DNA from: Nematostella vectensis
Taxonomy: Eukaryota
NCBI RefSeq assembly: GCF_932526225.1
Contig: NC_064037.1
Span: 3,184,996 to 3,248,995 of the forward strand
Reading direction: 5' to 3'
Length of the DNA stretch: 64,000 nucleotides
Shown: positions 27,415 through 64,000 of the stretch, piece by piece
Numbering within the stretch: the stretch's first letter is position 1
Layout of the letters: each line of letters begins with the position of its first letter
Position numbers and translations under genes: made by a program
The notes under the pieces: model-generated
What the model saw: the letters and a program-made list of their open reading frames with translations, nothing else
What the model was told of the DNA's origin: nothing
The model's database searches: none

Positions 27415-37462
<10,048 letters not shown>

Positions 37463-38204: not shown

Positions 38205-39850
38205 GTTCCGGGAAAGCTCCTCCCAGTCCCCGTGCTGAAAAACAATCAGTTATCAATCAGCCGTCAATGAGTCACCGTGTCAGAACAATCAGTTATCAAT
38301 GAGTCACCGTGTCAGAACAATCAGTTATCAATCAGCCGTCAATGAGTCACCGTGTCAGAACAATCAGTTATCAATCAGCCGTCAATGAGTCACCGTGTCA
38401 GAACAATCAGTTATCAATGAGTCACCGTGTCAGAACAATCAGTTATCAATGAGTCACCGTGTCAGAACAATCAGTTATCAATGAGTCACCGTGTCAGAAC
38501 AATCAGTTATCAATGAGTCACCGTGTCAGAACAATCAGTTATCAATGAGTCACCGTGTCAGAACAATCAGTTATCAATGAGTCACCGTGTCAGAACAATC
38601 AGTTATCAATGAGTCACCGTGTCAGAACAATCAGTTATCAATGAGTCACCGTGTCAGAACAATCAGCCGCCAAAGAGTCAAATGTCAGGACAACCAGTTA
38701 TCAGCCGTCAATGAGTCAACGTGTCAGAACAATCAGTTATCAATCAGCCGTCAATGAGTCACCGTGTCAGAACAATCAGTTATCAATCAGCCGCCAATAA
38801 GTCAACGTGTCAGGAAAACCAGTTATCAATCAGCTGTCAATGAGTCAACGTGTCAGAACAATCAGTTATCAATCAGCCGTCAATAAGACAACGTGTCAGA
38901 ACAATCAGTTATCAATCAGCCGTCAATGAGTCACCGTGTCAGAACAATCAGTTATCAATGAGTCACCGTGTCAGAACAATCAGCCGCCAAAGAGTCAAAT
39001 TTCAGGACAACCAGTTATCAGCCGTCAATGAGTCAACGTGTCAGAACAATCAGTTATCAATCAGCCGTCAATGAGTCACCGTGTCAGAACAATCAGTTAT
39101 CAATCAGCCGTCAATGAGTCAACGTGTCAGAACAATCAGTTATCAATCAGCCGTAAATGAGTCAACGTGTCAGAACAATCAGTTATCAATCAGCCGTCAA
39201 TGAGTCAACGTGTCAGGACAATCAGTTATCAATCAGCTGTCAATGAGTCAAATGTCAGAACAATCAGTTATCAATCAGCAATCAATGAGTCAACGTGTCA
39301 GGACAATCAGTTATCAATAAGCTGTCAAGGAGTCAAATGTCAGGACAATCAGTTATCAATCAGCCGTCAATGAGTTAAATGTCAGAACAATCAGTTATCA
39401 ATCAGCCGTCAATGAGTCAAATGTCAGGACAATCAGTTATCAATCAGCCGTCAATGAGTCAAATGTCATGACAATCAGTTATCGATCAGCCGTTAATGAA
39501 TCAAATGTCAGGACAATCAGTTATCAATCAGCCGTCAATGAGTCAACGTGTCAGAACAATCAGTTATCAATCAGCCGTCAATGAGTCAAATGTCAGAACA
39601 ATCAGCCGTCAATGAGTCCAATGTCAGAACAACCAGTTATCAATCAGCCGTCAATGAGTCACCGTGTCAGAACAACCAGTTATCAATGAGTCACCGTGTC
39701 AGAACAATCAGTTATCAATCAGCCGTCAATGAGTCAAATGTCAGAACAATCAGCCGTCAATGAATCAAATGTCAGAACAATCAGTTATCAATCAGCCGTC
39801 AATGAGTCAACGTGTCAGGACAATTGCTCTGAGCGCTAAATTAAAATTTC
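38205..39850. mobile_element. foldback-family element copy 2 (inverted relative to copy 1), right end truncated, subterminal repeat expanded into a satellite
   Basis: Terminus 38205 ttaaacacgaggttccgg-gaaagctcctcccagtcccc matches the reverse complement of the copy-1 right TIR. Internal unique segment ttgctctgagcgctaaatt...cctagagttgt (39815-39870) matches the reverse complement of 20560-20600. Confidence 0.65.
38230..39830. repeat. satellite, about 45-bp unit (cagttatcaatcagccgtcaatgagtcaccgtgtcagaacaat) x about 36; 22-bp sub-periodicity in places
   Basis: Direct reading; spurious ORFs 38850-39763. Confidence 0.9.
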
Positions 39851-42506: not shown

Positions 42507-43712
42507 ATGGAAGCGCTCGATCCGACTAGCGCTTACTTTACGAATAACTCCACCGAACTTCAGCCCAACGAGCTTACATCGGTGACGCAGCTTAGAGAAC
42601 CTTTCGGCTTGAAAGTGTTTCGCGGAATGATTTTCGCATTTGTGGTCATCGCGTCTCTGCTTGGGAATTCAGTTGTTATCAAGACCGTCTTCGAGAATTC
42701 TCTCCGCAAACCTATGACGTACTACCTTGTGAGTAACATGGCTGTCGCTGAGCTAATTGGTACGGTTCTCGTCCCTTTTAGCTACTCCTACCAAGAGATC
42801 TTCCACTGGCCGTTTGGCGAACTCCTCTGTCATATAATAGCACCATTGCAAGTGTTATCTGTGCTGGTAACAACCACATCACTGGCCGCTATTGCTCTGC
42901 ATCGGTACAAAGTGTTTACGTCTCCTCGGCGAGTCCGCGTGAGCGGTAAAACCATTACTTGTACCATCATCAGTCTTTGGGCAATCGCCTTCTTCATCAC
43001 TCTCCCTTCCTTTCTCTACCTCTCTCACGTTAAGTCGCCGACTCAAAAGGGGAAATACTGGTGCTTGGAACTCGTCCCAGGGGACCAACTTAAAGACTTT
43101 CCCTCGCCTGAATTGCGCAAATATTACATGATTCGGTTTTTTTGTAATTTCGTGATCCCGGCATGTGTGATGATGTTTTCGTATGGCGTAGTAAGCCTAC
43201 AATTGCGCTTTCATCGAAATCGCGCAGTGAGAGACGTGGAGATGGAAACCGGCAGCGACCGAACGCGCGAGACGAGCGCTTCTACCCAACCACAGCAACA
43301 AGGGACAGTAAGTATGGAGCTGCACGAAGTCGTGCGCTCGCCCCCACATGCCCAACAACCACAGCACAACGCAAGCAACAGTACGCGAGAACAAGCGACT
43401 CGCGAGCGCGCACAGCGCAAACGTCAGGCTATCTCGGGTCTAGAGACGGACTTACTAAAGATGATTTACTTAATCATTCTGATCTTCCTCGTCTGTTACT
43501 TCCCTTATCAAATATTCTTTCTGCTGGAGTATTTTGGCGTTATGAACTACAAGAATTGGCAATACTTCGACATCACTCGAATTTACGTGTTTCTCCTGAC
43601 GTGTTTCCCGTCCGCCATTCACCCTATCTGCTATGGTACGATGTCCAAGTTTTTCGCGCGCACATTCTCTCGACTGGTGCTATGCAGATGGTCGTATGGT
43701 GACTACCCGTGA
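42507..43712 (+). CDS. intronless class A GPCR, orphan, with long third intracellular loop
   Basis: 401-aa ORF; 2 N-terminal N-glycosylation motifs (NNS, NST); GNSVVI (TM1), ALHRY (DRY variant), FVIPACVMMFSYG (TM5), Gln/Ser-rich ICL3, CYFPY (TM6), SAIHPICYG (NPxxY variant HPxxY). Confidence 0.8.
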   Translation: MEALDPTSAYFTNNSTELQPNELTSVTQLREPFGLKVFRGMIFAFVVIASLLGNSVVIKTVFENSLRKPMTYYLVSNMAVAELIGTVLVPFSYSYQEIFHWPFGELLCHIIAPLQVLSVLVTTTSLAAIALHRYKVFTSPRRVRVSGKTITCTIISLWAIAFFITLPSFLYLSHVKSPTQKGKYWCLELVPGDQLKDFPSPELRKYYMIRFFCNFVIPACVMMFSYGVVSLQLRFHRNRAVRDVEMETGSDRTRETSASTQPQQQGTVSMELHEVVRSPPHAQQPQHNASNSTREQATRERAQRKRQAISGLETDLLKMIYLIILIFLVCYFPYQIFFLLEYFGVMNYKNWQYFDITRIYVFLLTCFPSAIHPICYGTMSKFFARTFSRLVLCRWSYGDYP

Positions 43713-46850: not shown

Positions 46851-48585
46851 TCTTTCGAATAAGCGCCTCCCCGAATAAGCTTCTCGCCGAATAAGCGTCT
46901 CGCCGAATATGCGTCTCGCCGAATAAGCGTCTCGCCGAATAAGCATCTCGCCGAATAAGCGTCTCGCCGAATAAGCATCTCGCCGAATAAGCGTCTCGCC
47001 AAATAAGCGTCTCGCCGAATAAGCGTCTCGCCGAATAAGCATCTCGCCGTATAAGCGTCTCGCCGAATAAGCGTCTCGCCGAATAAGCGTCTCGCCGGAT
47101 AAGCGTCTCGCCGAATAAGCATCTCGCCGAATAAGCGTCTCGCCGAATAAGCGTCTCGCCGAATAAGCATCTCGCCGTATAAGCGTCTCGCCGAATAAGC
47201 ATCTCGCCGAATAAGCGTCTCGCCGAATAAGCGTCTCGCCGAATAAGCGTCTCGCCGTATAAGCGTCTCGCCGAATAAGCATCTCGCCGAATAAGCGTCT
47301 CGCCGAATAAGCATCTCGCCGAATAAGCGTCTCGCCGAATAAGCGTCTCGCCGAATAAGCGTCTCGCCGAATAAGCGTCTCGCCGTATAAGCGTCTCGCC
47401 GAATAAGCGTCTCGCCGTATAAGCATCTCGCCGAATAAGCGTCTCGCCGAATAAGCGTCTCGCCGAATAAGCATCTCGCCGAATAAGCGTCTCGCCGAAT
47501 AAGCATCTCGCCGTATAAACGTCTCGCCGAATGAGCTTCTCGCCGAATGAGCTTCTCGCCGAATAAGCGTCTCGCCGAATAAGCGTCTCGTCGTATAAGC
47601 GTCTCGCCGAATAAGCATATCGCCGAATATGCGTCTCGCCGAATAAGCGTCTCGCCGAATAAGCATCTCGCCGAATAAGCGTCTCGCCGAATAAGCGTCT
47701 CGCCGAATAAGCGTCTCGCCGAATAAGCGTCTCGCCGTATAAGCGTCTCGCCGAATAAGCATCTCGCCGAATAAGCGTCTCGCCGAATAAGCATCTCGCC
47801 GAATAAGCGTCTCGCCGAATAAGCGTCTCGCCGAATAAGCGTCTCGCCGTATAAGCGTCTCGCCGTATAAGCGTCTCGCCGAATAAGCGTCTCGCCGTAT
47901 AAGCATCTCGCCGAATAAGCGTCTCGCCGAATAAGCGTCTCGCCGAATAAGCATCTCGCCGAATAAGCGTCTCGCCGAATAAGCATCTCGCCGTATAAGC
48001 GTCTCGCCGAATGAGCTTCTCGCCGAATAAGCGTCTCGCCGAATAAGCGTCTCGCCGTATAAGCGTCTCGCCGAATAAGCATATCGCCGAATATGCGTCT
48101 CGCCGAATAAGCATCTCGCCGAATAAGCATCTCGCCGTATAAGCGTCTCGCCGAATAAGCGCCTCGCCGAATAAGCATCTCGCCGTATAAGCGTCTCGAC
48201 GAATAAGCGTCTCGCCGAATAAGCGTCTCGCCGAATAAGCGTCTCGCCGGATAAGCGTCTCGCCGAATAAGCATCTCGCCGAATAAGCGTCTCGCCGAAT
48301 AAGCATCTCGCCGAATAAGCGTCTCGCCGAATAAGCGTCTCGCCGAATAAGCATCTCGCCGAATAAGCGTCTCGCCGAATAAGCGTCTCGACGAATAAGC
48401 GTCTCGCCGAATAAGCGTCTCGCCGAATAAGCGTCTCGCCGTATAAGCGTCTCGCCGTATAAGCGTCTCGCCGAATAAGCGTCTCGCCGAATAAGCATCT
48501 CGCCGAATAAGCGTCTCGCCGAATAAGCGTCTCGCCGAATAAGCGTCTCCCCGAATAAGCGTCTCGCCGAAATGAAAAATGAAAT
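46851..48585. repeat. 16-bp satellite (gaataagcgtctcgcc) x about 108, 1.7 kb
   Basis: Direct reading. Open in three minus-strand frames, giving artefact ORFs 46788-48615. Confidence 0.95.
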
Positions 48586-52200: not shown

Positions 52201-55098
52201 ACAGACCACTTTGAGGCAACCTGTTCCAGTCTGTCTTGATTAGGTGTACATATACATTGCCTTCCTAAAAATTATATTATGCTTCTTTTTTTTTTGTTTT
52301 GCCAGTGGCAAAATCCTTTTCCCTGCATATTGTTAGCATGCTTTTTTATATTGTGATTTTTTTTTGTGGTTTGCTTTTAGCCTGGAACCCTTATAGAATG
52401 GGGAAACAACTGGTGAGTCATTTTATGATTTTACAGATAATCACGTGGTTATTGTAATAAATGGGGGGATATGTGGCTCGAAGTGTATCCATCTACCAAG
52501 CCAATAGGATCACCCATACCCTTGACTTAATTTTGATGCAGCTTTAATTTTTTTATATTGACTGAGTCATGCCATTAACCTTAGGTTGTAAGTGATGTCC
52601 TCCGCGGCCGTGCCATTAACCTTAGGTTGTTGTGTCCTCAGGGGCCGTGCCATTAACCTTAGGTTGTTGTGTTCTCAGGGGCCGTGCCATTAACCTTAGG
52701 TTGTTGTGTCCTTAGGGGCCGTGCCATTAACCTTAGGTTGTTGTGTCCTCAGGGGCCGTGCCATTAACCTTAGGTTGTTGTGTCCTTAGGGGCCGTGCCA
52801 TTAACCTTAGGTTGTTGTGTCCTCAGGGACCGTGCTGTTAACCTTAGGTTTTTGTGTCCTTAGGGGCCGTGCCATTAACCTTAGGTTGTTGTGTCCTCAG
52901 GGGCCGTGCCATTAACCTTAGGTTGTTGTGTCCTCAGGGGCCGTGCCATTAACCTTAGGTTGTTGTGTCCTTAGGGGCCGTGCCATTAACCTTAGGTTGT
53001 TGTGTCCTCAGGGACCGTGCCGTTAACCTTAGGTTGTTGTGTCCTTAGGGGCCGTGCCATTAACCTTAGGTTGTTGTGTCCTCAGGGGCCGTGCCATTAA
53101 CCTTAGGTTGTTGTGTTCTCAGGGGCCGTGCCATTAACCTTAGGTTGTTGTGTCCTCAGGGGCCATGCCATTAACCTTAGGTTGTTGTGTCCTCAGGGGC
53201 CGTGCCATTAACCTTAGGTTGTTGTGTCCTAAGGGGCCATGCCATTAACCTTAGGTTGTTGTGTTCTCAGGGGCCGTGCCATTAACCTTAGGTTGTTGTG
53301 TCTTAGGGGCCGTGCCATTAACCTTAGGTTGTTGTGTCTTAGGGGCCGTGCCATTAACCTTAGGTTGTTGTGTCTTAGGGGCCGTGCCATTAACCTTAGG
53401 TTGTTGTGTCTTAGGGGCCGTGCCATTAACCTTAGGTTGTTGTGTCTTAGGGGCCGTGCCATTAACCTTAGGTTGTTGTGTCTTAGGGGCTGTGCCATTC
53501 ACTGTAGGGGTTGTGGTGTCCTTAGGGGCCGTGCCATTAACCTTAGGTTGTTGTGTTCTCAGGGGCCGTGCCATTAACCTTAGGTTGTTGTGTCTTAGGG
53601 GCCGTGCCATTAACCTTAGGTTGTTGTGTCTTAGGGGCCGTGCCATTAACCTTAGGTTGTTGTGTCTTAGGGGCTGTGCCATTCACTGTAGGGGTTGTGG
53701 TGTCCTTAGGGGCCATGCCATTAACCTTAGGTTGTTGTGTCCTCAGGGACCGTGCCATTAACCTTAGGTTGTTTTGTCCTCAGGGGCCGTGCCATTAACC
53801 TTAGGTTGTTGTGTCCTCAGGGGCTGTGCCATTAACCTTAGGTTGTTGTGTCCTCAGGGGCCGTGCCATTAACCTTAGGTTGTTGTGTCCTCAGGGGCCG
53901 TGCCATTAACCTTAGGTTGTTGTGTCCTCAGGGGCCATGCCATTAACCTTAGGTTGTTGTGTCCTCAGGGGCCGTGCCATTAACCTTAGGTTGTTGTGTC
54001 CTCAGGAGCCGTGCCATTAACCTTAGGTTGTTGTGTCCTCAGGGACCGTGCCATTGACCTTAGGTTGTTGTGTCCTAAGGGGCCATGCCATTAACATTAG
54101 GTTGTTGTGTTCTCAGGGGCCGTGCCATTAACCTTATGTTGTTGTTGCCTCAGGGGCCGTGCCATTAACCTTAGGTTGTTGTGTCCTCAGGGACCGTGCC
54201 ATTAACCTTAGGTTGTTGTGTCCTCAGGGGCCGTGCCATTAACCTTAGGTTGTTGTGTCCTCAGGGACTGTGCCATTGACCTTAGGTTGTTGTGTCCTAA
54301 GGGGCCATGCCATTAACCTTAGGTTGTTGTGTTCTCAGGGGCCGTGCCATTAAACTTCGCCAAGAGGAAGATGAGGCAGTTGGCGGATTCTTTTCACAAA
54401 TTGGGGAATTGTACATGGTGCACCATATATGGGGTTAGTGAAACCTTTCCATGACCTTTATTCAGGCACCCTTAGATCCTTACTGAGGTTATATTTGTGT
54501 TTGTTCTCAGCTTACAAGGATCTTGTGAAGCGCAAAGAGATTCGCCAAAACCTTTGGAACAATCCTGGGTGGGATGACTGCGTTGGTAACACTGGTACAT
54601 ATTAACAATATCTTAATAATTCCAACATTCATCTGTTGGTAACACTGGTACATATTAACAAATCTTTATAATTCCAACATTCATCTGTTGGTAACACTGG
54701 TACATATTAACAATATCTTAATAATTCCAACATTCATCTGTTGGTAACACTGGTACATATTAACAATATCTTTATAATTCCAACATTCATCTGTTGGTAA
54801 CACTGGTACATTAGCAATATCTTAATAATTCCAACATTCATCTGTTGGTAACACTGGTACATATTAACAATATCTTAATAATTCCAACATTTATTTTGTC
54901 GTTATCTATTTATCTTGTTGGTAACACTGGTACATTAACAATATCTCAATAATTCCAACATTCATTTTTGTCGTTATCTATTTATCTTGTTGTTAAGAAC
55001 TTTGTTCAACTGATTTCTACCTCATATTTTCAGTGCCTCTGATTCGCCGCATGGAATCTTGGGTAATGGTTCCTCTACCCTACTCACCTTCCAAGTGA
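49006..55098 (+). CDS. NIPSNAP: NIPSNAP-like gene span (9 exons, 277 aa; N-terminal mitochondrial presequence-like)
   Basis: Matches human NIPSNAP1 throughout: [36 protein letters not shown]; [21 protein letters not shown]; [20 protein letters not shown]; [94 protein letters not shown]; [47 protein letters not shown]. Summed CDS 834 nt. Exons: 49006-49219, 50131-50176, 50547-50641, 50848-50918, 52013-52153, 52381-52412, 54339-54433, 54511-54585, 55034-55098. Confidence 0.9.
50131..50176 (+). CDS. NIPSNAP: NIPSNAP-like exon 2 ([16 protein letters not shown])
   Basis: ctttcag| acceptor; donor GT|GTAAGT. Confidence 0.75.
50547..50641 (+). CDS. NIPSNAP: NIPSNAP-like exon 3
   Basis: ...[15 protein letters not shown] matches human LVGNWNTWYGEQDQA; donor A|GTATGT. 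Confidence 0.8.
50848..50918 (+). CDS. NIPSNAP: NIPSNAP-like exon 4
   Basis: [24 protein letters not shown]; donor CCG|GTAGGT. Confidence 0.8.
51040..51945. mobile_element. about 0.9-kb element with about 25-bp terminal inverted repeats (tacagggcttctggaattatg ... cataatccaggaagccctgta) and internal attatgcgc sub-repeats, in NIPSNAP-like intron 4
   Basis: TIRs read directly near 51055-51085 and 51918-51945; ORF 50944-51189 overlaps and is rejected. Confidence 0.5.
52013..52153 (+). CDS. NIPSNAP: NIPSNAP-like exon 5
   Basis: 47 codons, most conserved block; donor AAG|GTACAT. Confidence 0.9.
52381..52412 (+). CDS. NIPSNAP: NIPSNAP-like exon 6 ([10 protein letters not shown]+W)
   Basis: ttttag| acceptor; donor TG|GTGAGT. 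Confidence 0.85.
52571..54338 (+). repeat. 37-38-bp minisatellite x about 47, tandem amplification of the exon 7 3' splice site plus first 15 nt of exon 7
   Basis: Unit ttgttgtgtcctcag|GGGCCGTGCCATTAAccttagg. The real junction is gttgttgtgttctcag|GGGCCGTGCCATTAAActtcgcc. Spurious ORFs 53229-53798. Confidence 0.9.
54339..54433 (+). CDS. NIPSNAP: NIPSNAP-like exon 7 ((W)[31 protein letters not shown])
   Basis: The acceptor ttctcag| is the last unit of the upstream minisatellite; donor G|GTTAGT. Confidence 0.85.
54511..54585 (+). CDS. NIPSNAP: NIPSNAP-like exon 8 ([25 protein letters not shown])
   Basis: Donor G|GTAACA is the first unit of the downstream minisatellite. Confidence 0.85.
54586..54990 (+). 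repeat. 53-bp minisatellite x about 7 derived from the exon 8 5' splice site (ctgttg|GTAACACTGGTACATattaacaatatcttaataattccaacattcat)
   Basis: The real exon 8 end is gcgttg|GTAACACTGGTACAT. Each unit repeats the donor plus flanking nt. Confidence 0.9.
55034..55098 (+). CDS. NIPSNAP: NIPSNAP-like exon 9, terminal ([21 protein letters not shown], stop TGA)
   Basis: matches human [21 protein letters not shown]. Confidence 0.85.
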
Positions 55099-55892
55099 TT
55101 CCCTAAGAGCATCATGGGAATTCTGTATATAGTTCAGAGCTTAGCTTCTAGCTAAGATCACACGATAAACCAGTGAAAGACGGGAAATGAATGATGTTTA
55201 TTGTGAGAAAGGTCTCACCAATTATTATACTATCAATACCGAACTATCAGTAGATGCTCACAGTGACAATCGCATGTTATGGCTTAGCTATCTAACAACA
55301 ACATCTAACTTGCTCACACATACTTCTGCCATAGTTTAGTTATGCATATTTCTTTAGGGGTGTTTTATTGTTTGGCTGATTTGGGAAACACACGCTTATA
55401 ACACTTCATTTACTCCCTTGTTTAGCGGATTGTTGCGCATTTTACACCGATAAACTACTCTTATGATTCTTATGTCCATTTTTAAAATGAACCTTGCAAA
55501 AAGGCAAAGTCGATTCTTCGGTGTTTTAGTCCGGTTACGACCGTGCATTCTGCAGGTGTTAGATGATAGCAGTGTCTATTTGTGTAGATGAAAGCAGTGT
55601 CTATTTGTGCATCTATTCTGACCCGAAAAAAAAACATTAAGAGTTGCCCAGAGAGACTGATTGTAATGTTTTTTTTATTAAAAATATAACGTATTTCCGG
55701 TGTGTAATGGTACAAAAATCGAAACTCATTTGCAATATTCTCAGGGATGGATCATGCAGTTTAGAGACTCTTCTATACAACATATGGCGGGAGGTAAATT
55801 TTTGGATTTTAGCTCCCATTTATTTCTAAAATTTCATTCGGAAGGCGGAGTGGTTTCCGCCCCCTAGATCCGCCTCTGAATCCTCCCTCAGT

Positions 55893-56281
55893 TTAATCCA
55901 TAGTACAATATCTGATGTCACAACCCGCAGTTGGGCTAAGTCGGTATACATAAAACTTTCCACAATTCCGCACAAGCGCTGGAACCTTGTGGTAACAGCA
56001 GTCGTTGGCATAGTCCCCAAAACACACGTGTGTCATCACACAACCGTCTTCTTTTCGCGGGTGCTGACCGTACAGCCAGCCGGGAAATTTGGCGTTACAG
56101 CTGCCAGGGGCCTGGCACGACGTGGGCATTTTCGTGCCAGCATCCCCGGATATTCGGTACCAGCCCTCCGCGAGGTTTGCGTCACAGGAGCCCAGCATCT
56201 TAGAGCTGTGGACTTGGCGATCTCCGTCGTGGAGGAGGTTGTAGTGATGACATTCATACGCAACCTCCCCGACATCATAAC
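55893..56281 (-). CDS. exon 11, terminal: D8C domain (uromodulin/GP2-type) with stop TAA
   Basis: ECHHYNLL...CDANLAEGWYRISGDAGTKMPTSC...CNAKFPGWLYGQHPRKEDGCVMTHVCF...CCYHKVPALVRNCGKFYVYRL...CDIRYCT matches the D8C consensus (GWYRF, MPE.C, CNT..P.WLNG.HP, CC, C.GGYYVY.L, C..AYC); acceptor aaattccccag|GT. Confidence 0.75.
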
Positions 56282-59200
56282 CTGGGGAATTTAGACGGGA
56301 ATCGCACAAGTTTTAGTTTAGCAACAAAGTAAGCCTGGGGAAGTCACGAGAGTTTTAGCTAAACGACAACATAACCTGTGTAGTTCAGCCTTCATCATAT
56401 TACAATGTTCGTTCAGCTGTTGTATAAAGAAGAAGAATTTCGAGTGTTTCTGAATAGTACTTTAATGACCTTCCATTGTGGATACCCAGACAGAACGCCT
56501 TGGGTAGACTGTAAAGTTGGTAGCCGATCAAATAATCAATGGGTCAACGAGCTAGACTTACATATGAAACGAGTCCCACTCCATGGCTTACATATGGGAT
56601 GGGTCCCACTCCATGACTCACATAAGGGATGGGTCCTATTCCTTGACTTACATATTGGATGGGTCCCACTCCATGACTTACATATGGGATGGGTCCCACT
56701 CCATGACTTACATATGGGATGGGTCCCACTCCATGACTTACATATGGGATGGGTCCCACTTCATGACTTACATATGGGATGGGTCCTACTCCAAGACTTA
56801 CATATGGGATGGGTCCCACACCATGACTTACATATGGGATGGGTCCTACTCCATGACTTACATATGGAATGGGTCCCACTCCATGACTTACATATGGGAT
56901 GGGTCCCACTCCATGACTTACATATGGGATGGGTCCTACTCCATGACTTACATATGGAATGGGTCCCACTCCATGACTTACATATGGGATGGGTCCCACT
57001 CCATGACTTACATATGGGATGGGTCCCACTCCATGACTTACATATGGGATGGGTCCTACTCCATGACTTACATATGGGATAAGTCCCACTCCATGGCTTA
57101 CATATGGGATGGGTCCCACTCCATGACTTACATATGGGATGGGTCCCACTCCAAGACTTACATATGGGATAAGTCCCACTCCATGACTTACATATGGGAT
57201 GGGTCCCACTCCAAGACTTACATATGGAATGGGTCCCACTCCATGACTTACATATGGGATGGGTCCCACTCCAAGACTTACATATGGAATGGGTCCCACT
57301 CCATGACTTACATATGGGATGGGTCCCACTCCATGACTTACATATGGGATGGGTCCCACTCCATGACTAACATATTGGATGGGTCCCACTCCATGACTTA
57401 CATATGGGATGGGTCCCACTCCAAGACTTACATATGGGATGGGTCCCACTTCATGACTTACATATGGGATGGGTCCCACTTCATGACTTACATATGGGAT
57501 GGGTCCCACTCCAAGACTTACATATGGGATGGGTCCCACTCCATGACTTACATATGGGATGGGTCCCACTCCATTGACCATGCTCGGTACATATGCGCAC
57601 AGCCGAGCCATAGAGCATACATCCGGGCTTGCACGAGTACGTCACAGCACTGCCCACATGATAATCGTTGCCGCTGACCATTCCATTGAACAGAGGCTCG
57701 GGTTCCTTGCACGCTGCCAGACCTGGACAAGTAGAAGATTGGAGAGGAATGAGGTTTCACGTGGAGAAACGGGATTAAACAAAAAGGAACGAGATCAAAC
57801 AAGAAGGGACCAGATTACAGGAGAAGAAATAAGGAGCACACAAGAAGAAAATGGATTAGGAAAAGAAACTAGATTTTATGCAAGGAGGAGCACGAAAGAC
57901 GAGAAGGAACTAAAGTACACGAGGAGACTGAACAATGATAGATTACACGATGAAAATTACACGACGAGAAACAAGATTGCACGATGAGAAACTGGATCAA
58001 TCGAGAAGAAACTAGATTATATATTGAGGATCACGGGGACAATATTGAGAGATTATAACTTACAAGGAGAAACCAGATCAAACTCGTTTTGATATCGTGA
58101 ACAAGATTATTCCATGATGGTAATCTATTTTCTAGCGCATTACGTACTTAGCTGCGTGAAGTATCCGATCGGCTTCTCCAGAAACTTGGTTTTTGCGGCG
58201 CAAAAATATTTGCCCTGGTCAGCTGATGATGGACGTTGGATCGTGTAGACAGCGGTGAACTCGTCCTCATCCTTCAAGATCTTGGTTGGCAAGGCAACGT
58301 CATCTTTGTACCACGTGAGCGTTGGTGAAGGAGTGCCTTTGGCTGTACAGTTTAGGATGATCGGTGTGTTCACGTTTTTGATTTTGAGTGTGGCAGGGGC
58401 AACCTTAAGGAATTTGACAGCACCTGGAGAAATTAAGAAAGCAAAAAGACACAGACGTAATAAACCACGTGCCTTCGAATAATGCGCGTTCCATCGTTGA
58501 AAATGAAAGAAGTCTAGACACATCTGGGATAGTAGTTATTGGACTTACTAAACCTTTCCACAGTAACGTCTATTGCAGCAATGACGGAGCCCATAGGGCT
58601 GCTCGCGCGACAGATATACAGTCCCTCATCTTCCTGGGTAAAACATGTAGTAGATATGAACGTAAGCTTACATGGAGATTGAACAAATGGTTTGCAGTAC
58701 ATTTACAGTATCTAGTCATCTCGGTTGAAGCGTACAGTACTCAATCATGGCCTACGCGGCTTAGGGAGAAAAGGTTGGCTTTCTCCTGTAATCATCAAGA
58801 TAGTGCTTGGTTCTCTTGAACTATTTGCTTACCTTGTTGGGGTCGTTCAGATATAACACGCCCTGCACGACCTTGTGCCTTTCCTCCGACAACTTCTTGT
58901 CCCTAGTCCTTCTCCACGTCACCACAGGCTCCGGGTAGCCCTCAACCTTGCACTCCAGCTTGGTGGACGTGCTCTGGAACGCTGTCACTTTGCTCGGAGG
59001 TTTCTCTATGAACTTGGGTTTCGCTAAGAAAATACAAGTATGTAAAGGGCTGTCACTAAAACTTAATATAGACTACCCCCTCAGGGAAAACAAGAATATT
59101 TCGAGTATATTTCAATTTCCATTATCGCGTGTAAAAATTTAAAATTTATTCAAATAAGGTTGCACTCAAGAATCCATGTGTCGTTACCCGCGGTGGTCTA

Positions 59201-62200
59201 TTGACAGCATAAAAAACTCCCAAGCGCTAACCTCTCACTTATTTGAAACCTGCGGTGGTCTATAGACTCCCAAGCGCTAACCTCTCACTGATTTGAAACC
59301 CGCGGTTGTCTATAGACTCCCAAGCGCTAACCTCTTACTGATTTGGAACCCGCGGTGGTCTATAGACTCCCAAGCGCTAATCTCTCACTTAATTGAAACC
59401 CGCGGTGGTCTATAGACTCCCAAGCGCTAACCTCTCACTGATTTGAAACCCACGGTGGTCTATAGACTCCCAAGCGCTGACCTCTTACTGATTTGAAACC
59501 CGCGGTGGTCTATAGACTCCCAAGCGCTAGCCACTCACTGATTTGAAACCCGCGGTGGTCTATAGACTCCCAAGCGCTAACCTCTAACTGATTTGAAACC
59601 GGGACCTATGACTTAAAAGCGACGTACATAGCTTGACATTAAGGAGCAGCTTTTATCTGTTTAATAACCAGGTCCTCTAGGGGAGTCGATTAAATCCTGT
59701 TAACACAGCCCTTTCAAAGCAACAGTATAATTGAGAATGACAATTACATCAATATGGCAACCATTGCCAATCTCCTCTCTCTTCTCCCCCAGTGAGCGCC
59801 AAACTTACTTGCGACTATGATATCCGTGGCAGCCCTCGCCGGGCCCCTCCCCCCTTCTCTCCCAGTGAGCGTCAATATCTTACCTGCGACTATGATATCT
59901 GTGGCAGCCCTCGCCGAAACCCTTCCCCCTTCTCCCCCAGTGAGCGCCAATATCTTACCTGCGACTATGATATCCGTGGCATGCCTCGCCGAACCCCTCC
60001 CCCCTTCTCCCCCCAGTGAGCGCCAAACTTACTTGCGACTATGATATCCGTGGCATGCCTCGCCGAACCCCTTCTCCCCCCAGTGAGCGCCAAACTTACT
60101 TGCGACTATGATATCCGTGGCAGCCCTTGCCGAACCCATTGCGTTTTTTGCATTGAACACCCAGGTCCCCGAGTCCTCGGGCTGTGCTTTGCTAAAGCCG
60201 AGGGTGCTGCTAAAAATAGCCTCTCGGGACCCCTCCTTAGTCCAATACGTGTCGGGGACGGGGAAACCGCTGGCTTTTGCAGTGAAAGTAAATGGGCTCC
60301 CAGCCTTAAGGGTTATTTTGGGTGGTGGTTTTACTGTGATATTTGGCGCCACTGAAAAAGGAAGGAAAAACATGAAAAAGGAAAGCATTCCTGAGCGAAA
60401 ACACAGATATCCCGCTCGTTCAGAATATACTATTCTTAGTGGGGTCTAGGAGATGACTTGGAAAATTTGGTTCGCTTTGTTCGTGCTTTTACAATATTCC
60501 AGTCCATTTACAAAACACATAGCATTGTTATCGTTGTTGCTTTGCAAGATTCGCTGCGTAAAATCGGGTTCTTCCGAAAAACGGTAAGTCAACTCTAGAG
60601 ATTTTCAAGTAAACTATAAAACTGTTGTAATCAGACTTACTTACCAAACCCTTGCGGCAAGGCTGCTCCGCCTCCCTTACCGCTACCCGTGTCTGTACCT
60701 ACTCCCGAGACATCTACGCCCCCTTCAGCAGAGCCTGCGCCTGCAACACCTATCCCAAAGCCATTCCCTCCCACGCTTCCGACGAAGCGTCCCCCAGTCA
60801 CAGGCACCCAGCGGCCGTCCTTCATCATGACAGCCGATGTACCAGGGAGTCCCCTAGGTCCCGTATGCCCGCGAGCTCCACGGTACCCTCTCAATCCTCT
60901 TGGACCTCGAGGACCCGGGGAACCGACGATGGCTATTACTTGAGTCCGCCCTGCTTCGGCCTTTCCGGTGGCGACTGTAAAAACGAAAGAGTATTTTACA
61001 ACATTTCTCAGGCCTTTTTTCGCCCTGTCCGGTGGCTTATCCGATAAAAGGATTCTCCTCCCATTCCATCAAAACAGGAACAACCGAGGCCTGAAAAATG
61101 TTGTAATCTGTAGGGTGAGGGGATATTTCCAATCATATACCTTCAATGAAGCTGGCCTCTGCTTGTCCCCTCATCGGCTTTAATGGTAGGGTGTATAAAG
61201 GGTGGGTGGGGTGGGGAAAGCATATACTCACCCACTCCTTTCTTCAGCCGTTCCGTGAGCTTTTTGTCTATAAAAGACTCCATTGACGCCGCGTCAGTGA
61301 TTTTTGTGCCCTCGAAGATTCTTTCTGTTAAATCAGGTGCAAACAAGTAGTGTGTAGTGTACGGTTTAGAGACTGAAGAGGGCTGAAAATGTTTACAGAA
61401 TGTTTGTATGCATTTTTGTCTTTTTTTTTTTTTTGCATCGGTTAGCGTCGCCAAAATAAATTTATATTAGAACATGGGCACTTTTGGACCTTTTCATGAT
61501 CGCCCAAGACAAAGGGTAGTCGACTCGACTCGAGATGCAGACTGAGGGTCCTTCACACCTAGTGAGAGTGTGCGAGGGATGGAGAAAAGTAAAAACAATT
61601 CGCGAAGGCCGTATGTACAACTGAGAGTGGAGAGACTTGAAGTGAAAAATAACATAAAAGCACTGCGATTTGCGGACCGACTTACCCATTTTCTGATCCA
61701 CATAAGCATTGATGTAGCGTCTTGTGGCCAGCGGTAGTTGACGACCGTCTGTATAGAGCAAGCATTTACTAAATGGGCTAGCATGTCCCAAGAGACCATG
61801 GGAACACACGAGGTAAATCCCGGCTACAAATATCTCTTATATTATAGCTTTTATTAGAAACCTTACTCACTTATCAGAGTTGTGCTCCCCTTGTCCACGG
61901 TAACCCCTGGAAACGATGGAAAAGCTGCAAGTTTTAGATGACTAGGGCTACAGATTTTACACAATTTTTTTCTTGGGGGGGAGGGGGGTTGTAGGTAACA
62001 CAATTGAAGCACTATAGTACTGACTTACATTGCTTGTACTCCACTTCTTACCAAGATCGACGGATCCGTTGATTGTTTTGATTCCTCCAGCGTCAATACT
62101 GATATTCTTTCCGTCAGCTGTCACAGAATGATAAAGGCTATAAGCGTCTTTTCGTATCTGCATAGGGATGTGTTTGACTGCTCTTGGGCCCTTTGTTTTA

Positions 62201-63412
62201 TTCTGCTTGAACTAACTGATGCTCACTCCATTCGTGTGTGTACTATATAAACTATACTAAATGGAATAAACATACAGACATAAATTGTCTTATGTAAAAG
62301 ACACAAGTATTGTGTAGCTTCACTGGGTATAATTGTGAAATGTTTGATCTTCTAAGATGGCTATACGAGTCTTTTACTGCATGGTAGCTAAACTACCCTA
62401 GCCTCGTCCCCAGGCTACTCCCTTTCTGTCAGCTCCATGATGCTTTGCGCGCACTCACACTTTCCAATATGGCGGACGCTTCAGAGCAGAAAGGGCCAGT
62501 GACGTCATAGCCATGTAGAGCGTGATAGGCCCGCCGAGAAGCACAGGGACGAGGCTACAACTACCCTACACCATGGCGAAAGGGCTTAGAAGAGATGGTA
62601 GTTGGTCCGGTATTTTACATTATTGGTTATCTCATATTTTACAAAATATTTCTACCTGTAACGCAGATTATCCCAGATGGTCCCTGTTGAATAAAACAAT
62701 AACAAGCAGTAACAAAAATGCCAATACGGTAAAATGACATATAGACCACATGATAGTGCAAACGTCGGTGTTTCAATTTACTGGTTATTGTTATACCAAT
62801 GGCGATGCCATTTGGTTTGAATCTGGAGGGACAAGCTATTTTCATTTTAAAGTGGGGCCCCATATAACGGACATCAAATTAGCAGCCAGGCAAGTAGCCA
62901 GGGGGGGGATGGAAGGGGGCTCACAGTCCACTATTTGCTGGTTTAGGGGGAGGAGGTGCGCTTGAGGTTACAGAGGCTTTCTCGCTCTAGTTTTTAGAGG
63001 ATAAAGCGGGATAGAATACCTTGATTATCCGCTTGCACTTGGTTGTCAGTGGAACAGGGAGGATATTCGTCACGTCACTGAAGTTTACAGAAACGCGTCG
63101 TGGCTGTCCCATGTCTCCCTGTGGGATCCTTCTCGGGTCACCTCCATCCACCGGATAACCCCCTGGAGTGCGTTTTATGTTATATCGCCTTGGCACGGCA
63201 GCGCGAGGGACGCGCGAAAAGACGCGAGAAGGATCGATATATTCGCGACCCTTTGCGGTCTCCATTTGTATACGTAATTGTATGATGTCTTGGTTCAATA
63301 CGTGCGTAGTGTACGAAACAAATACAATAGATGCCACTAGCATCGCAAAGTTCAGAAGGCTTAGTACCAAATGCCAGTTTGTAGGTTTGAGAGAAGGTTT
63401 TTGCTTGTCCAT
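55893..63412 (-). CDS. novel type II membrane protein gene span: N-terminal signal-anchor, short collagen-like triple-helix segment, 3 Ig (I-set-like) domains, Sushi/CCP, C-terminal D8C domain (about 807 aa, 11 exons)
   Basis: Phase-consistent GT-AG chain on the minus strand: 63020-63412, 62052-62157 (tentative), 61686-61823, 61232-61324, 60645-60974, 60100-60351, 58833-59023, 58549-58633, 58148-58423, 57552-57722, 55893-56281. Summed length 2424 nt, divisible by 3. Every domain exon is phase 1-1 or pairs to give phase 1-1, as typical for Ig and Sushi modules. Confidence 0.65.
56550..57551 (-). repeat. 30-bp minisatellite x about 33 made of the last 20 nt of the Sushi exon plus its GTAAGT donor (minus strand unit catggagtgggacccatcccatatGTAAGT)
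   Basis: The array starts at the first intron base and is contiguous with the exon end ...caatggagtgggacccatcccatat|gtaagt. Plus strand reads ggatgggtcccactccatgacttacatatg. It yields 355-364-aa artefact ORFs in several frames. Confidence 0.9.
57552..57722 (-). CDS. exon 10: Sushi/CCP domain (CKEPEPLFNGMVSGNDYHVGSAVTYSCKPGCMLYGSAVRICTEHGQWSGTHPI)
   Basis: 4 Cys, conserved Trp, Y-x-C and G-x-W-S-G motifs; acceptor ttgtccag|GT; donor ATAT|GTAAGT; phase 1-1. Confidence 0.8.
58148..58423 (-). CDS. exon 9: Ig domain 3 (APATLKIKNVNTPIILNCTAKGTPSPTLTWYKDDVALPTKILKDEDEFTAVYTIQRPSSADQGKYFCAAKTK...)
   Basis: acceptor tttctccag|GT; donor CTAA|GTACGT; phase 1-1. Confidence 0.75.
58549..58633 (-). CDS. 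exon 8: Ig domain 2, second half (EDEGLYICRASSPMGSVIAAIDVTVERF)
   Basis: acceptor ttttacccag|GAA; donor TTTA|GTAAGT; phase 0-1. Confidence 0.65.
58833..59023 (-). CDS. exon 7: Ig domain 2, first half (KPKFIEKPPSKVTAFQSTSTKLECKVEGYPEPVVTWRR...)
   Basis: acceptor ttcttag|CG; donor AAG|GTAAGC; phase 1-0. Confidence 0.7.
59175..59605. repeat. about 60-bp tandem repeat x 7 (cccgcggtggtctatagactcccaagcgctaacctctcactgatttgaaa)
   Basis: Direct reading; lies in the intron between Ig domains 1 and 2. Confidence 0.9.
59790..60099 (-). repeat. about 63-bp tandem repeat x 5 derived from the Ig-domain-1 exon end + donor (minus strand ccacggatatcatagtcgcaAGTAAGtttggcgctcactgg...)
   Basis: Units contain gatatcatagtcgca(a/g)gtaag, identical to the exon end GATATCATAGTCGCAA|GTAAGT. 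ORFs 59744-60044 are artefacts. Confidence 0.85.
60100..60351 (-). CDS. exon 6: Ig domain 1 (APNITVKPPPKITLKAGSPFTFTAKASGFPVPDTYWTKEG...EDSGTWVFNAKNAMGSARAATDIIVA)
   Basis: acceptor cctttttcag|TG; donor GCAA|GTAAGT; phase 1-1. The donor region is amplified in the adjacent repeat. Confidence 0.75.
60645..60974 (-). CDS. exon 5: collagen-like segment (GSPGPRGPRGLRGYRGARGHTGPRGLPG = 9 Gly-X-Y) followed by Gly-rich region
   Basis: acceptor tttttacag|TC; donor TTTG|GTAAGT; phase 1-1; 109 codons. Confidence 0.65.
61232..61324 (-). CDS. exon 4: ERIFEGTKITDAASMESFIDKKLTERLKKGV
   Basis: acceptor gatttaacag|AA; donor GTGG|GTGAGT; phase 1-1. Confidence 0.5.
61686..61823 (-). CDS. exon 3: GIYLVCSHGLLGHASPFSKCLLYTDGRQLPLATRRYINAYVDQKM
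   Basis: acceptor atatttgtag|CC; donor ATGG|GTAAGT; phase 1-1. Confidence 0.5.
62052..62157 (-). CDS. exon 2 (tentative): ...IRKDAYSLYHSVTADGKNISIDAGGIKTINGSVDL
   Basis: Only one frame is open. Donor CTTG|GTAAGA gives phase 1, which matches the exon 3 acceptor. The acceptor is uncertain; an alternative extends to about 62205. Confidence 0.35.
63020..63412 (-). CDS. exon 1: cytoplasmic N-terminus + TM signal-anchor (WHLVLSLLNFAMLVASIVFVSY) + Gly/Pro-rich segment
   Basis: ATG 63412; 131 codons; donor ATCAAG|GTATTC at 63019. Confidence 0.55.
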
Positions 63413-63589
63413 TTTCGCACGTTATGTTATTATGTTATCTAAGGTTAGCCTGTGCTGTCTGCGTAGGGTCGGATTACAAACAAACCATGCAATATAGTAT
63501 AATGGTTCTTTCATCATTATACTCTTGATGTCCCTTGACCTTGATGATGGAGGGAGGGGAGGGGAGGGAGGGGAGTGACTGCAGTGCCG

Positions 63590-63830
63590 TACTCACATCG
63601 TGGATGCTATATCGTCACCGTGCCCTAATAACTATGTACTTGTGTATCTGTGCATCTCTTTGTGTTGTCAAAACTAGATTCGCGATACAATATAAGTATA
63701 GCAGTGCCATACCTCACATCGTGGATGCTATTTCATCACGGTGCCATAATAACTATTTACTTGTGTATCTGCGCATCTCTTTGTGTTGTCAAAACTAGAT
63801 TCGCGATACAATATAAGTAATAACAAGGGA
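63590..63830. repeat. two about 120-bp direct repeats about 180-400 bp upstream of the minus-strand gene ATG
   Basis: gtgccgtactcacatcgtggatgctat...ttgtgttgtcaaaactagattcgcgatacaatataagta occurs twice. Confidence 0.85.
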
Positions 63831-64000
63831 AAATACTTTGCTTAGATCAGCATCTATTTATGTATTCATTTGACATTTGCACAAATATAACAAATAACAT
63901 TTTTGCAAGGCATTTTAAGAAAATGTGTCATATTTTAATAGGCCGGGAGCTCATTTATTTTAATACATTTTGTCCACGAAGAAGAGGTGCTTATTGGAGA

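Follow-up and report, generated by a model that had tools for sequence, protein, structure and literature searches.

A minisatellite of variable copy number repeats the 5′ splice site of an immunoglobulin-domain exon in Nematostella vectensis LOC5507568

Introduction

Human minisatellites whose first monomer lies across an exon-intron boundary have been summarized for F7 IVS7, IFI6, CBS, LMNB2 and PDGF (PMC1557585). In F7 IVS7, a 37-bp unit is present in 5–9 copies and splicing takes place at the most upstream donor alone (Borensztajn et al. 2006, PLoS Genet; PMC1557585). The F7 pseudo-sites are activated once the upstream site is mutated; when raised to a consensus value of 91 they stay silent, and only perfect-consensus sites compete (PMC1557585). 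This upstream-first rule of donor choice has been demonstrated in mammalian cells only. According to the overview given in the same report, splicing in IFI6 (6-16) intron 2 and CBS intron 13 also draws on the two pseudo-sites closest to the exon, LMNB2 (100-bp unit) and PDGF intron 4 (81-bp unit) use only the authentic donor, and globin constructs carry engineered tandem 5′ splice sites in cis-competition assays (PMC1557585).

The array described here, at the 3′ end of exon 8 of the Nematostella vectensis gene LOC5507568, is a donor-spanning VNTR, that is, a known kind of element in a new gene and a new phylum. Like F7 IVS7, it is a polymorphic intronic minisatellite whose first monomer spans the boundary and which places pseudo-donors after the authentic donor; as in F7, it is from the most upstream site that the annotated product is spliced. 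Copy number is 5–9 in F7 and 1 or 5 in LOC5507568. The F7 unit includes 4 nt of exon, whereas the LOC5507568 unit of 67–75 nt includes 38 nt, giving a spacing about twice that of F7. The pseudo-sites of F7 are identical to the true site and some of them keep the frame, whereas the LOC5507568 units have diverged by 5–15%, two of their pseudo-sites exceed the true site in predicted strength, and none of the exon 8 pseudo-sites keeps the frame. Donor usage in F7 was determined experimentally in mammalian cells, whereas for the cnidarian gene we infer it. IFI6 and CBS, as far as the overview describes them, resemble LOC5507568 in that the donor is repeated by a minisatellite starting at the exon end. 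The units of LMNB2 and PDGF, by the lengths given in a summary description, are similarly long. Reed and Maniatis in 1986 and Eperon et al. in 1993 reportedly engineered duplicated 5′ splice sites for cis-competition assays. In such constructs, too, equivalent donors with duplicated exon context compete for one acceptor; they are artificial and their outcomes conflict (the upstream or the downstream site being preferred), whereas LOC5507568 offers a natural allele.

Results

The host gene and the exon 8 boundary

The minus-strand gene of the 64,000-nt stretch of DNA that we analysed (the window) is LOC5507568 of N. vectensis, which spans 63412–55893 (-) and has 13 exons and a 790-aa product. 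We constructed the gene model by recursive exact spliced alignment to XP_048582585.1, complemented by tblastn. XP_048582585.1 was recovered completely from the 13 minus-strand exons with the first of the donors described below (donor 1) in use. The entry, which belongs to a 19.3-Mb chromosome record, is named ‘uncharacterized protein LOC5507568’ (790 aa) and falls into the same cluster as EDO36120. The spliced model running from the Ig1 exon through the stop codon matched EDO36120/XP_001628183 with 100% identity over 100% of the query. XP_048582585.1 and EDO36120 (XP_001628183) differ at three residues, and the window carries the XP_048582585.1 versions. A literature search on the accession numbers of LOC5507568 returned no papers.

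Domains were judged by the curated Pfam thresholds. The product scored above them for Ig_3 (122 bits) and I-set (119 bits), with three matched stretches each, for Sushi (45 bits) and for the uromodulin-type D8C domain (D8C_UMOD, 47.5 bits); a Collagen match of 22 bits fell under the cut-off and is referred to here as a collagen-like stretch. By sequence inspection, exon 1 encodes an N-terminal hydrophobic anchor. Overall, the gene codes for a type II membrane protein composed of a collagen-like part, three Ig parts, a Sushi part and a D8C part.

Exon 8 (60100..60351, minus strand), delimited by exact spliced reconstruction, tblastn and the Pfam Ig_3/I-set matches, encodes the I-set-like Ig1. 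It is in phase 1 at both ends and its 3′ end reads GTC GCA A|gtaagt. An earlier note on this DNA had placed the exon end at ...GATATCATAGTCGCAA|GTAAGT, precisely where the gene model puts it, with 60100 as the last exon base and the GT at 60099-60098. Intron 8 (59024..60099, minus strand; 1076 nt), as defined by the spliced reconstruction and Tandem Repeats Finder, is followed by exon 9 (58833..59023, minus strand), which encodes the first half of Ig2 and begins after the acceptor ttcttag|CG. The codon at the exon 8/exon 9 junction, A|CG, specifies Thr and is split in phase 1.

A minisatellite starts within exon 8 and repeats its donor

The 21-mer GATATCATAGTCGCA[AG]GTAAG occurs five times in the window, always on the minus strand, at 60115-60095, 60048-60028, 59974-59954, 59899-59879 and 59824-59804, and nowhere else in it; the count expected from shuffled sequence is none (100 shuffles). 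Successive copies are 67, 74, 75 and 75 nt apart. For the interval 59781-60137, Tandem Repeats Finder gave a period of 75, 4.9 copies and 89% matches, and together with the unit alignment it defines a minisatellite array of 4.9 units of 67–75 nt (59781..60137, minus strand). The units are arranged head to tail, and their size lies in the range of about 10–100 bp that is typical of this class. Unit 1 consists of the last 38 nt of exon 8 and the first 29 nt of intron 8. It thus includes both the exon end at 60100 and the authentic donor. Because the array begins 38 nt within the exon, at 60137, four spare copies of the donor are placed in intron 8.

The central proposal of the earlier note, that the donor of an Ig exon in a minus-strand gene was amplified into the intron, agrees with both the gene model and the unit alignment. 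Its five intronic units were right as to the number of motif copies, but copy 1 is the exon end itself and only four are intronic; its unit length of about 63 bp must give way to the spacing and period measured here; and its extent of 59790-60099 takes in the intronic portion of a repeat that actually starts inside the exon. Its interpretation is supported, and its errors are limited to copy count, period and repeat extent.

The authentic donor, CAA|GTAAGTTT (60092..60102, minus strand; GT at 60099-60098), is the sole donor that keeps the reading frame. It is followed on the same strand by pseudo-donor 2, CAA|GTAAGTTT (60025..60035; GT at 60032-60031), at +67 nt; pseudo-donor 3, CAG|GTAAGATA (59951..59961; GT at 59958-59957), at +141 nt; pseudo-donor 4, CAG|GTAAGATA (59876..59886; GT at 59883-59882), at +216 nt; and pseudo-donor 5, CAA|GTAAGTTT (59801..59811; GT at 59808-59807), at +291 nt. 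Copies 1, 2 and 5 thus read CAA|GTAAGT and copies 3 and 4 read CAG|GTAAGA, the latter two being those that the earlier note had singled out. The pseudo-donors are therefore identical to the true exon 8 donor or nearer the consensus than it is, and each lies in the same 38-nt exon-derived context and is followed by the same G-runs as the true donor.

The unit alignment revealed that each of the five units has its own substitutions and indels. Any two units differ at 3–11 of 64 aligned positions, and the variants that units have in common form a mosaic. The plus-strand ORFs that run across the array are mere translations of the repeat. When metagenomes were scanned with the 21-mer, two matches were returned, both by chance and both inside a bacterial gene encoding ...ADIIVASKADQ, which by eye looks like a CobW-type GTPase.

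The reading frame is preserved by the first donor alone

Both annotated Nematostella proteins contain the junction DIIVA|TKPKF, which results from the use of donor 1, and the RefSeq entry for LOC5507568 has a single product without an isoform label. Proteins of Actinostola, Acropora and Pocillopora, as well as two further proteins, align without gaps across the ...VA|T/I.P.F junction, at which V419, A420, P423 and F425 are invariant among the aligned orthologues. The gene of Actinostola reads GTC GCA A|GTACGT ... cag|TC at this junction and that of Pocillopora GTA GCG A|GTAAGT ... tag|CC; both introns have the same codon position and phase as intron 8 and an A at position -1. No tandem repeat was found at the orthologous intron in either of these two genes. 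Since the Thr/Ile codon begins with the A at -1, the coding copy of the donor is unable to accept an A-to-G change.

The consequences of using the other donors follow from the sequence of the units. With donor 2 in use, 67 nt more would be retained, the frame would shift and a stop would be reached 27 codons into exon 9. The additions made by donors 3–5 (141, 216 and 291 nt) are all multiples of three, and these donors are located behind a TAA at 60031-60029. This TAA, formed by the T at +2 of pseudo-donor 2 and the two As that follow, is the first in-frame stop of the exon 8 read-through, whose ORF covers 60029-60388 (119 aa). Thus, none of donors 2–5 maintains an open reading frame of the kind expected for protein isoforms, and since all four lead to premature stops the array units are not coding. 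These results bear out the earlier view that the first site is the one needed for the frame, and they exclude the coding function of the intervening units that it had named as its possible refutation. We accordingly rejected a coding or isoform reading of the units.

The products of downstream donors would be targets of nonsense-mediated decay (NMD), so little can be concluded from the fact that protein annotation lacks them. Apart from the two annotated proteins, the homology search yielded no fragments derived from Nematostella transcripts. Exact look-up of a 401-aa plus-strand ORF, the 119-aa read-through ORF and XP_048582585.1 in a public contig index gave no record.

Two pseudo-donors are predicted to exceed the true donor in strength

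We estimated donor strength from the duplex energy of U1 with the 5′ splice site, calculated with ViennaRNA, and from an approximate human donor matrix. The 5′ end of U1 in these duplexes is AUACUUACCUG. CAA|GTAAGT gave -5.6 kcal/mol and CAG|GTAAGA -11.0 kcal/mol; the approximate matrix gave 5.7 and 7.3 bits, respectively. Shapiro-Senapathy consensus values, not drawn from an authoritative table, would be roughly 81 (true donor) and 92 (copies 3 and 4). The claim of the earlier note that two copies are stronger therefore holds for predicted U1 pairing, which improves with the G gained at -1 despite the loss of the T at +6 (GTAAGT to GTAAGA).

Over the 12 donors of LOC5507568, the U1 energies ranged from -3.8 to -12.3 kcal/mol, and 5 of the 12 have no G at -1. 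The true exon 8 donor is thus ordinary within its gene, and by predicted U1 energy pseudo-donors 3 and 4 would be near the top of the donors of LOC5507568. With a minimum free energy of -107 kcal/mol, compared with an average of -129 kcal/mol for its shuffles (z = +4.3), the array RNA folds worse than shuffled sequence, and we therefore rejected a masking of the pseudo-donors by RNA structure. No Rfam family matched 55500-64000 at the gathering threshold.

Copy number differs between two assemblies

We compared the window with the 2007 assembly GCA_000209225.1 (DS469678.1), which has exactly one copy of the motif at this site against five in the window, a net length difference of 291 bp. The flanks are nearly identical (214/214 nt in exon 8, 171/171 nt in intron 8 and 292/293 nt in intron 7), and the haplotypes differ by ~0.2% over 60560-57723 and by ~1.3% further upstream. 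A single copy in the 2007 assembly between such flanks indicates that the copy number of the array varies, as in a VNTR, with 1 and 5 copies in the two assemblies compared.

In the 2007 assembly, the single copy begins as the 5′ part of unit 1 does and continues as the 3′ part of unit 5; of the pseudo-donor 5 unit, it is the 3′ half that is found there. The one-copy state is probably a recent contraction by unequal exchange between units 1 and 5. Collapse during assembly is a less likely origin of that state. We also considered a fresh expansion in the window haplotype, and found it less likely than contraction given identical flanks and units that differ at 3–11 of 64 positions. Identical flanks alongside diverged units would place the growth of the array before the split of these similar haplotypes, and under contraction the five-copy form would have persisted for some time.

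Other arrays in the window

Tandem arrays with a period of at least 10 number 28 and occupy 19.2% of the window. Four of them lie inside LOC5507568, and two of these four start at an exon's 3′ end. Besides the exon 8 array, intron 8 contains a 50-bp array of 7.7 copies (59216-59600; Tandem Repeats Finder), for which the 2007 assembly has 8.7 copies. The second donor-spanning array has a 30-bp unit and starts within exon 12, which encodes the Sushi part (56555-57574); it comprises about 34 copies in the window and 6 in the 2007 assembly. There, TAT|GTAAGT is repeated 33 times at an exact 30-nt spacing, and the first two pseudo-donors keep the frame and encounter no stop. The pattern of IFI6 and CBS, as summarized for these genes, is closer to this exon 12 array than to the exon 8 array, whose pseudo-sites all give premature stops. 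Two of the 12 donors of LOC5507568, those of exons 8 and 12, are thus repeated by copy-number-variable arrays. By a rough estimate, two donor-spanning arrays among four has a p of about 0.03–0.05 under random seeding, which makes an enrichment of arrays at the donors of this gene suggestive, not decisive.

Discussion

Our analysis points to donor 1 as the site most likely in use, with the extra units leaving passively with the intron. In the course of events that we propose, replication slippage or unequal exchange may have tandemly duplicated a segment of ~67 nt beside a purine/G-rich tract. The segment would have comprised the last 38 nt of exon 8 and the first 29 nt of intron 8, and its duplication would have left the true donor followed by pseudo-donors at the four downstream positions observed. 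The most upstream donor would then be chosen, the pseudo-sites being presumably silent by analogy with human F7 IVS7. Any use of a downstream copy would be expected to introduce a premature stop and lead to nonsense-mediated decay, yielding no protein isoform. After duplication the units diverged, the A-to-G change at -1 making two of the intronic copies better matches to U1. This change is drift in unconstrained copies, not adaptation. As the units would be spliced out within a longer intron, the array would be tolerated, and it is probably harmless.

On another reading, splicing of the five-copy allele is diverted to an appreciable extent to the stronger pseudo-donors 3 and 4, perhaps also to 2 and 5, and the mRNAs so formed, which contain premature stops, are degraded. 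In that case the allele would be hypomorphic or would tune expression, with an effect that depends on copy number and unit variants. Competition with the true donor is plausible in view of the exon context and G-runs shared by every pseudo-donor. The U1 energies (-11.0 against -5.6 kcal/mol for copies 3 and 4, with ~+1.7 bits by the approximate matrix), the identity of the exon-derived upstream context in every copy and the lack of masking by RNA structure (z = +4.3) are all consistent with such capture; so are the 70–90% use of perfect-consensus pseudo-sites in F7 minigenes (PMC1557585) and the natural use of the first two pseudo-sites that the overview reports for IFI6 and CBS (PMC1557585). 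F7 pseudo-sites at a consensus value of 91, however, showed no competition (PMC1557585), donor 1 is represented in both annotated proteins, and RefSeq gives a single product with no isoform label. Moreover, the array has lasted long enough for its units to diverge and hence is not strongly deleterious. On balance we regard a substantial diversion of splicing as rather unlikely. Far less credible still, to the point of being negligible, is the idea that a downstream donor is the real one and that the units add a linker peptide between Ig1 and Ig2 or make an alternative isoform. Donors 3, 4 and 5 do lie at multiples of three, as such a peptide would call for, but the TAA at 60031-60029 in unit 2 precedes them, donor 2 shifts the frame and stops within exon 9, the orthologues have no insertion at the junction, and the units are entirely missing from the other allele.

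Another view holds that there is no real polymorphism, either because the five-copy array was mis-assembled or because the single copy of the 2007 Sanger assembly was collapsed. Whole-genome shotgun assemblies often collapse long arrays, the two assemblies disagree at all three arrays compared (1 vs 5, 8.7 vs 7.7 and 6 vs 34 copies), and identical flanks are what closely related material would give. A spurious duplication would nevertheless hardly provide each unit with distinct substitutions and indels; an array of 357 bp fits within single Sanger or long reads, making a collapse from five copies to one unlikely; and the 2007 sequence has no Ns at the site. We therefore consider an artefact very improbable, and the passive removal of the units from donor 1 remains our preferred reading.

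That reading makes the exon 8 array an ordinary tolerated minisatellite of a repeat-rich genome. If the decoys were used, the proportion of unproductive splicing at exon 8 would depend on the length of the array and on the variants of its units, the exon 12 array would set the share of in-frame isoforms with +10 or +20 aa, and the exon 8 array would amount to a hypomorphic allele, dependent on copy number, of an extracellular protein conserved in anthozoans. More generally, donor-spanning arrays might act as heritable tuners of expression or isoform choice, or donor regions might be preferred birthplaces of minisatellites; we hold these broader ideas to be doubtful.

The main value of the finding lies in annotation and in a natural experiment on donor choice outside mammals. 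Gene finders and splice-aware aligners may pick wrongly among five near-identical donors, only the first of which fits the LOC5507568 protein. The locus amounts to a natural cnidarian competition assay, in which a weak true donor is followed by equal or stronger copies and a one-copy allele serves as the control. It could show whether upstream-first choice of 5′ splice sites, of the type described for F7, is ancient and holds in non-bilaterians.

A second donor-spanning minisatellite in LOC5507568

As in exon 8, a splice donor of LOC5507568 lies within a minisatellite at exon 12, the Sushi exon (57722–57552, minus strand). This second donor-spanning array of the gene (56555–57574, minus strand) consists of about 34 copies of a 30-bp unit and starts inside the final part of the exon. 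The motif TAT|GTAAGT occurs 33 times in the array, at a spacing of exactly 30 nt. The first two pseudo-donors, at 57522 and 57492, keep the reading frame without a stop codon, and splicing at these sites would add 10 or 20 amino acids, respectively, of the sequence CKSWSGTHPI; the pseudo-donors beyond them are located behind a TGA. Intron 12 (boundaries 57552 and 56281, minus strand) splits the codon of the final conserved cysteine of the Sushi domain (T|GT), and the same cysteine would be restored by every pseudo-donor of the array. The 2007 assembly (GCA_000209225.1) has 6 copies of the 30-bp unit, as compared with the approximately 34 in the window.

Tandem arrays and divergence between the assemblies

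When arrays with a period of at least 10 were counted, the 64-kb window was found to contain 28, which together make up 19.2% of its length. They include arrays of 16 bp × 107 (46856–48571), 37 bp × 48 (52570–54357), 33 bp × 39 (28541–29804) and 43 bp × 41 (38241–39824), and for several of the window's arrays the number of copies is not the same in the 2007 assembly. Within intron 8, 180 bp downstream of the exon 8 donor array, is a separate array of a 50-bp unit (59216–59600), which has 7.7 copies in the window and 8.7 in the 2007 assembly. Divergence between the two assemblies falls from about 1.3% over 62810–60561 to about 0.2% over 60560–57723; this drop near position 60560 appears to mark a haplotype or recombination boundary within LOC5507568.

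Related sequences and neighboring features

In the protein alignment of orthologues (columns ~440–500), the canonical cysteine pair of the first Ig domain, encoded by exon 8, is lost in both sea anemones (FTFTAKA...WVFNAKN in Nematostella and VSLSTKV...WTFKAKN in Actinostola); the corals retain the pair (C...C).

The 21-nt exon 8 donor motif also had an exact match in each of two metagenome contigs, Ga0222719_10013797 (950–970) and Ga0222718_10002865 (362–382). There, the site sits inside a bacterial gene, where it encodes ...ADIIVASKADQ; by eye, the gene looks like a CobW-type GTPase. We rejected kinship with the anemone locus and regard the matches as fortuitous, arising through the DIIVAS peptide.

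On the plus strand, an intronless 401-aa ORF (42507–43712) resembles, by eye, a 7TM receptor of the rhodopsin type; when the public contig index was queried for an exact match to this ORF, no record was returned.

Finally, a 121-bp direct repeat (63581–63819, minus strand) lies 170–400 bp upstream of the LOC5507568 ATG at 63412, in 2 copies in the window versus 2.8 in the 2007 assembly. Read on the strand of the gene, the repeat includes GAT|GTGAGT, which would represent a third duplicated donor if a putative 5′-UTR exon ends there.
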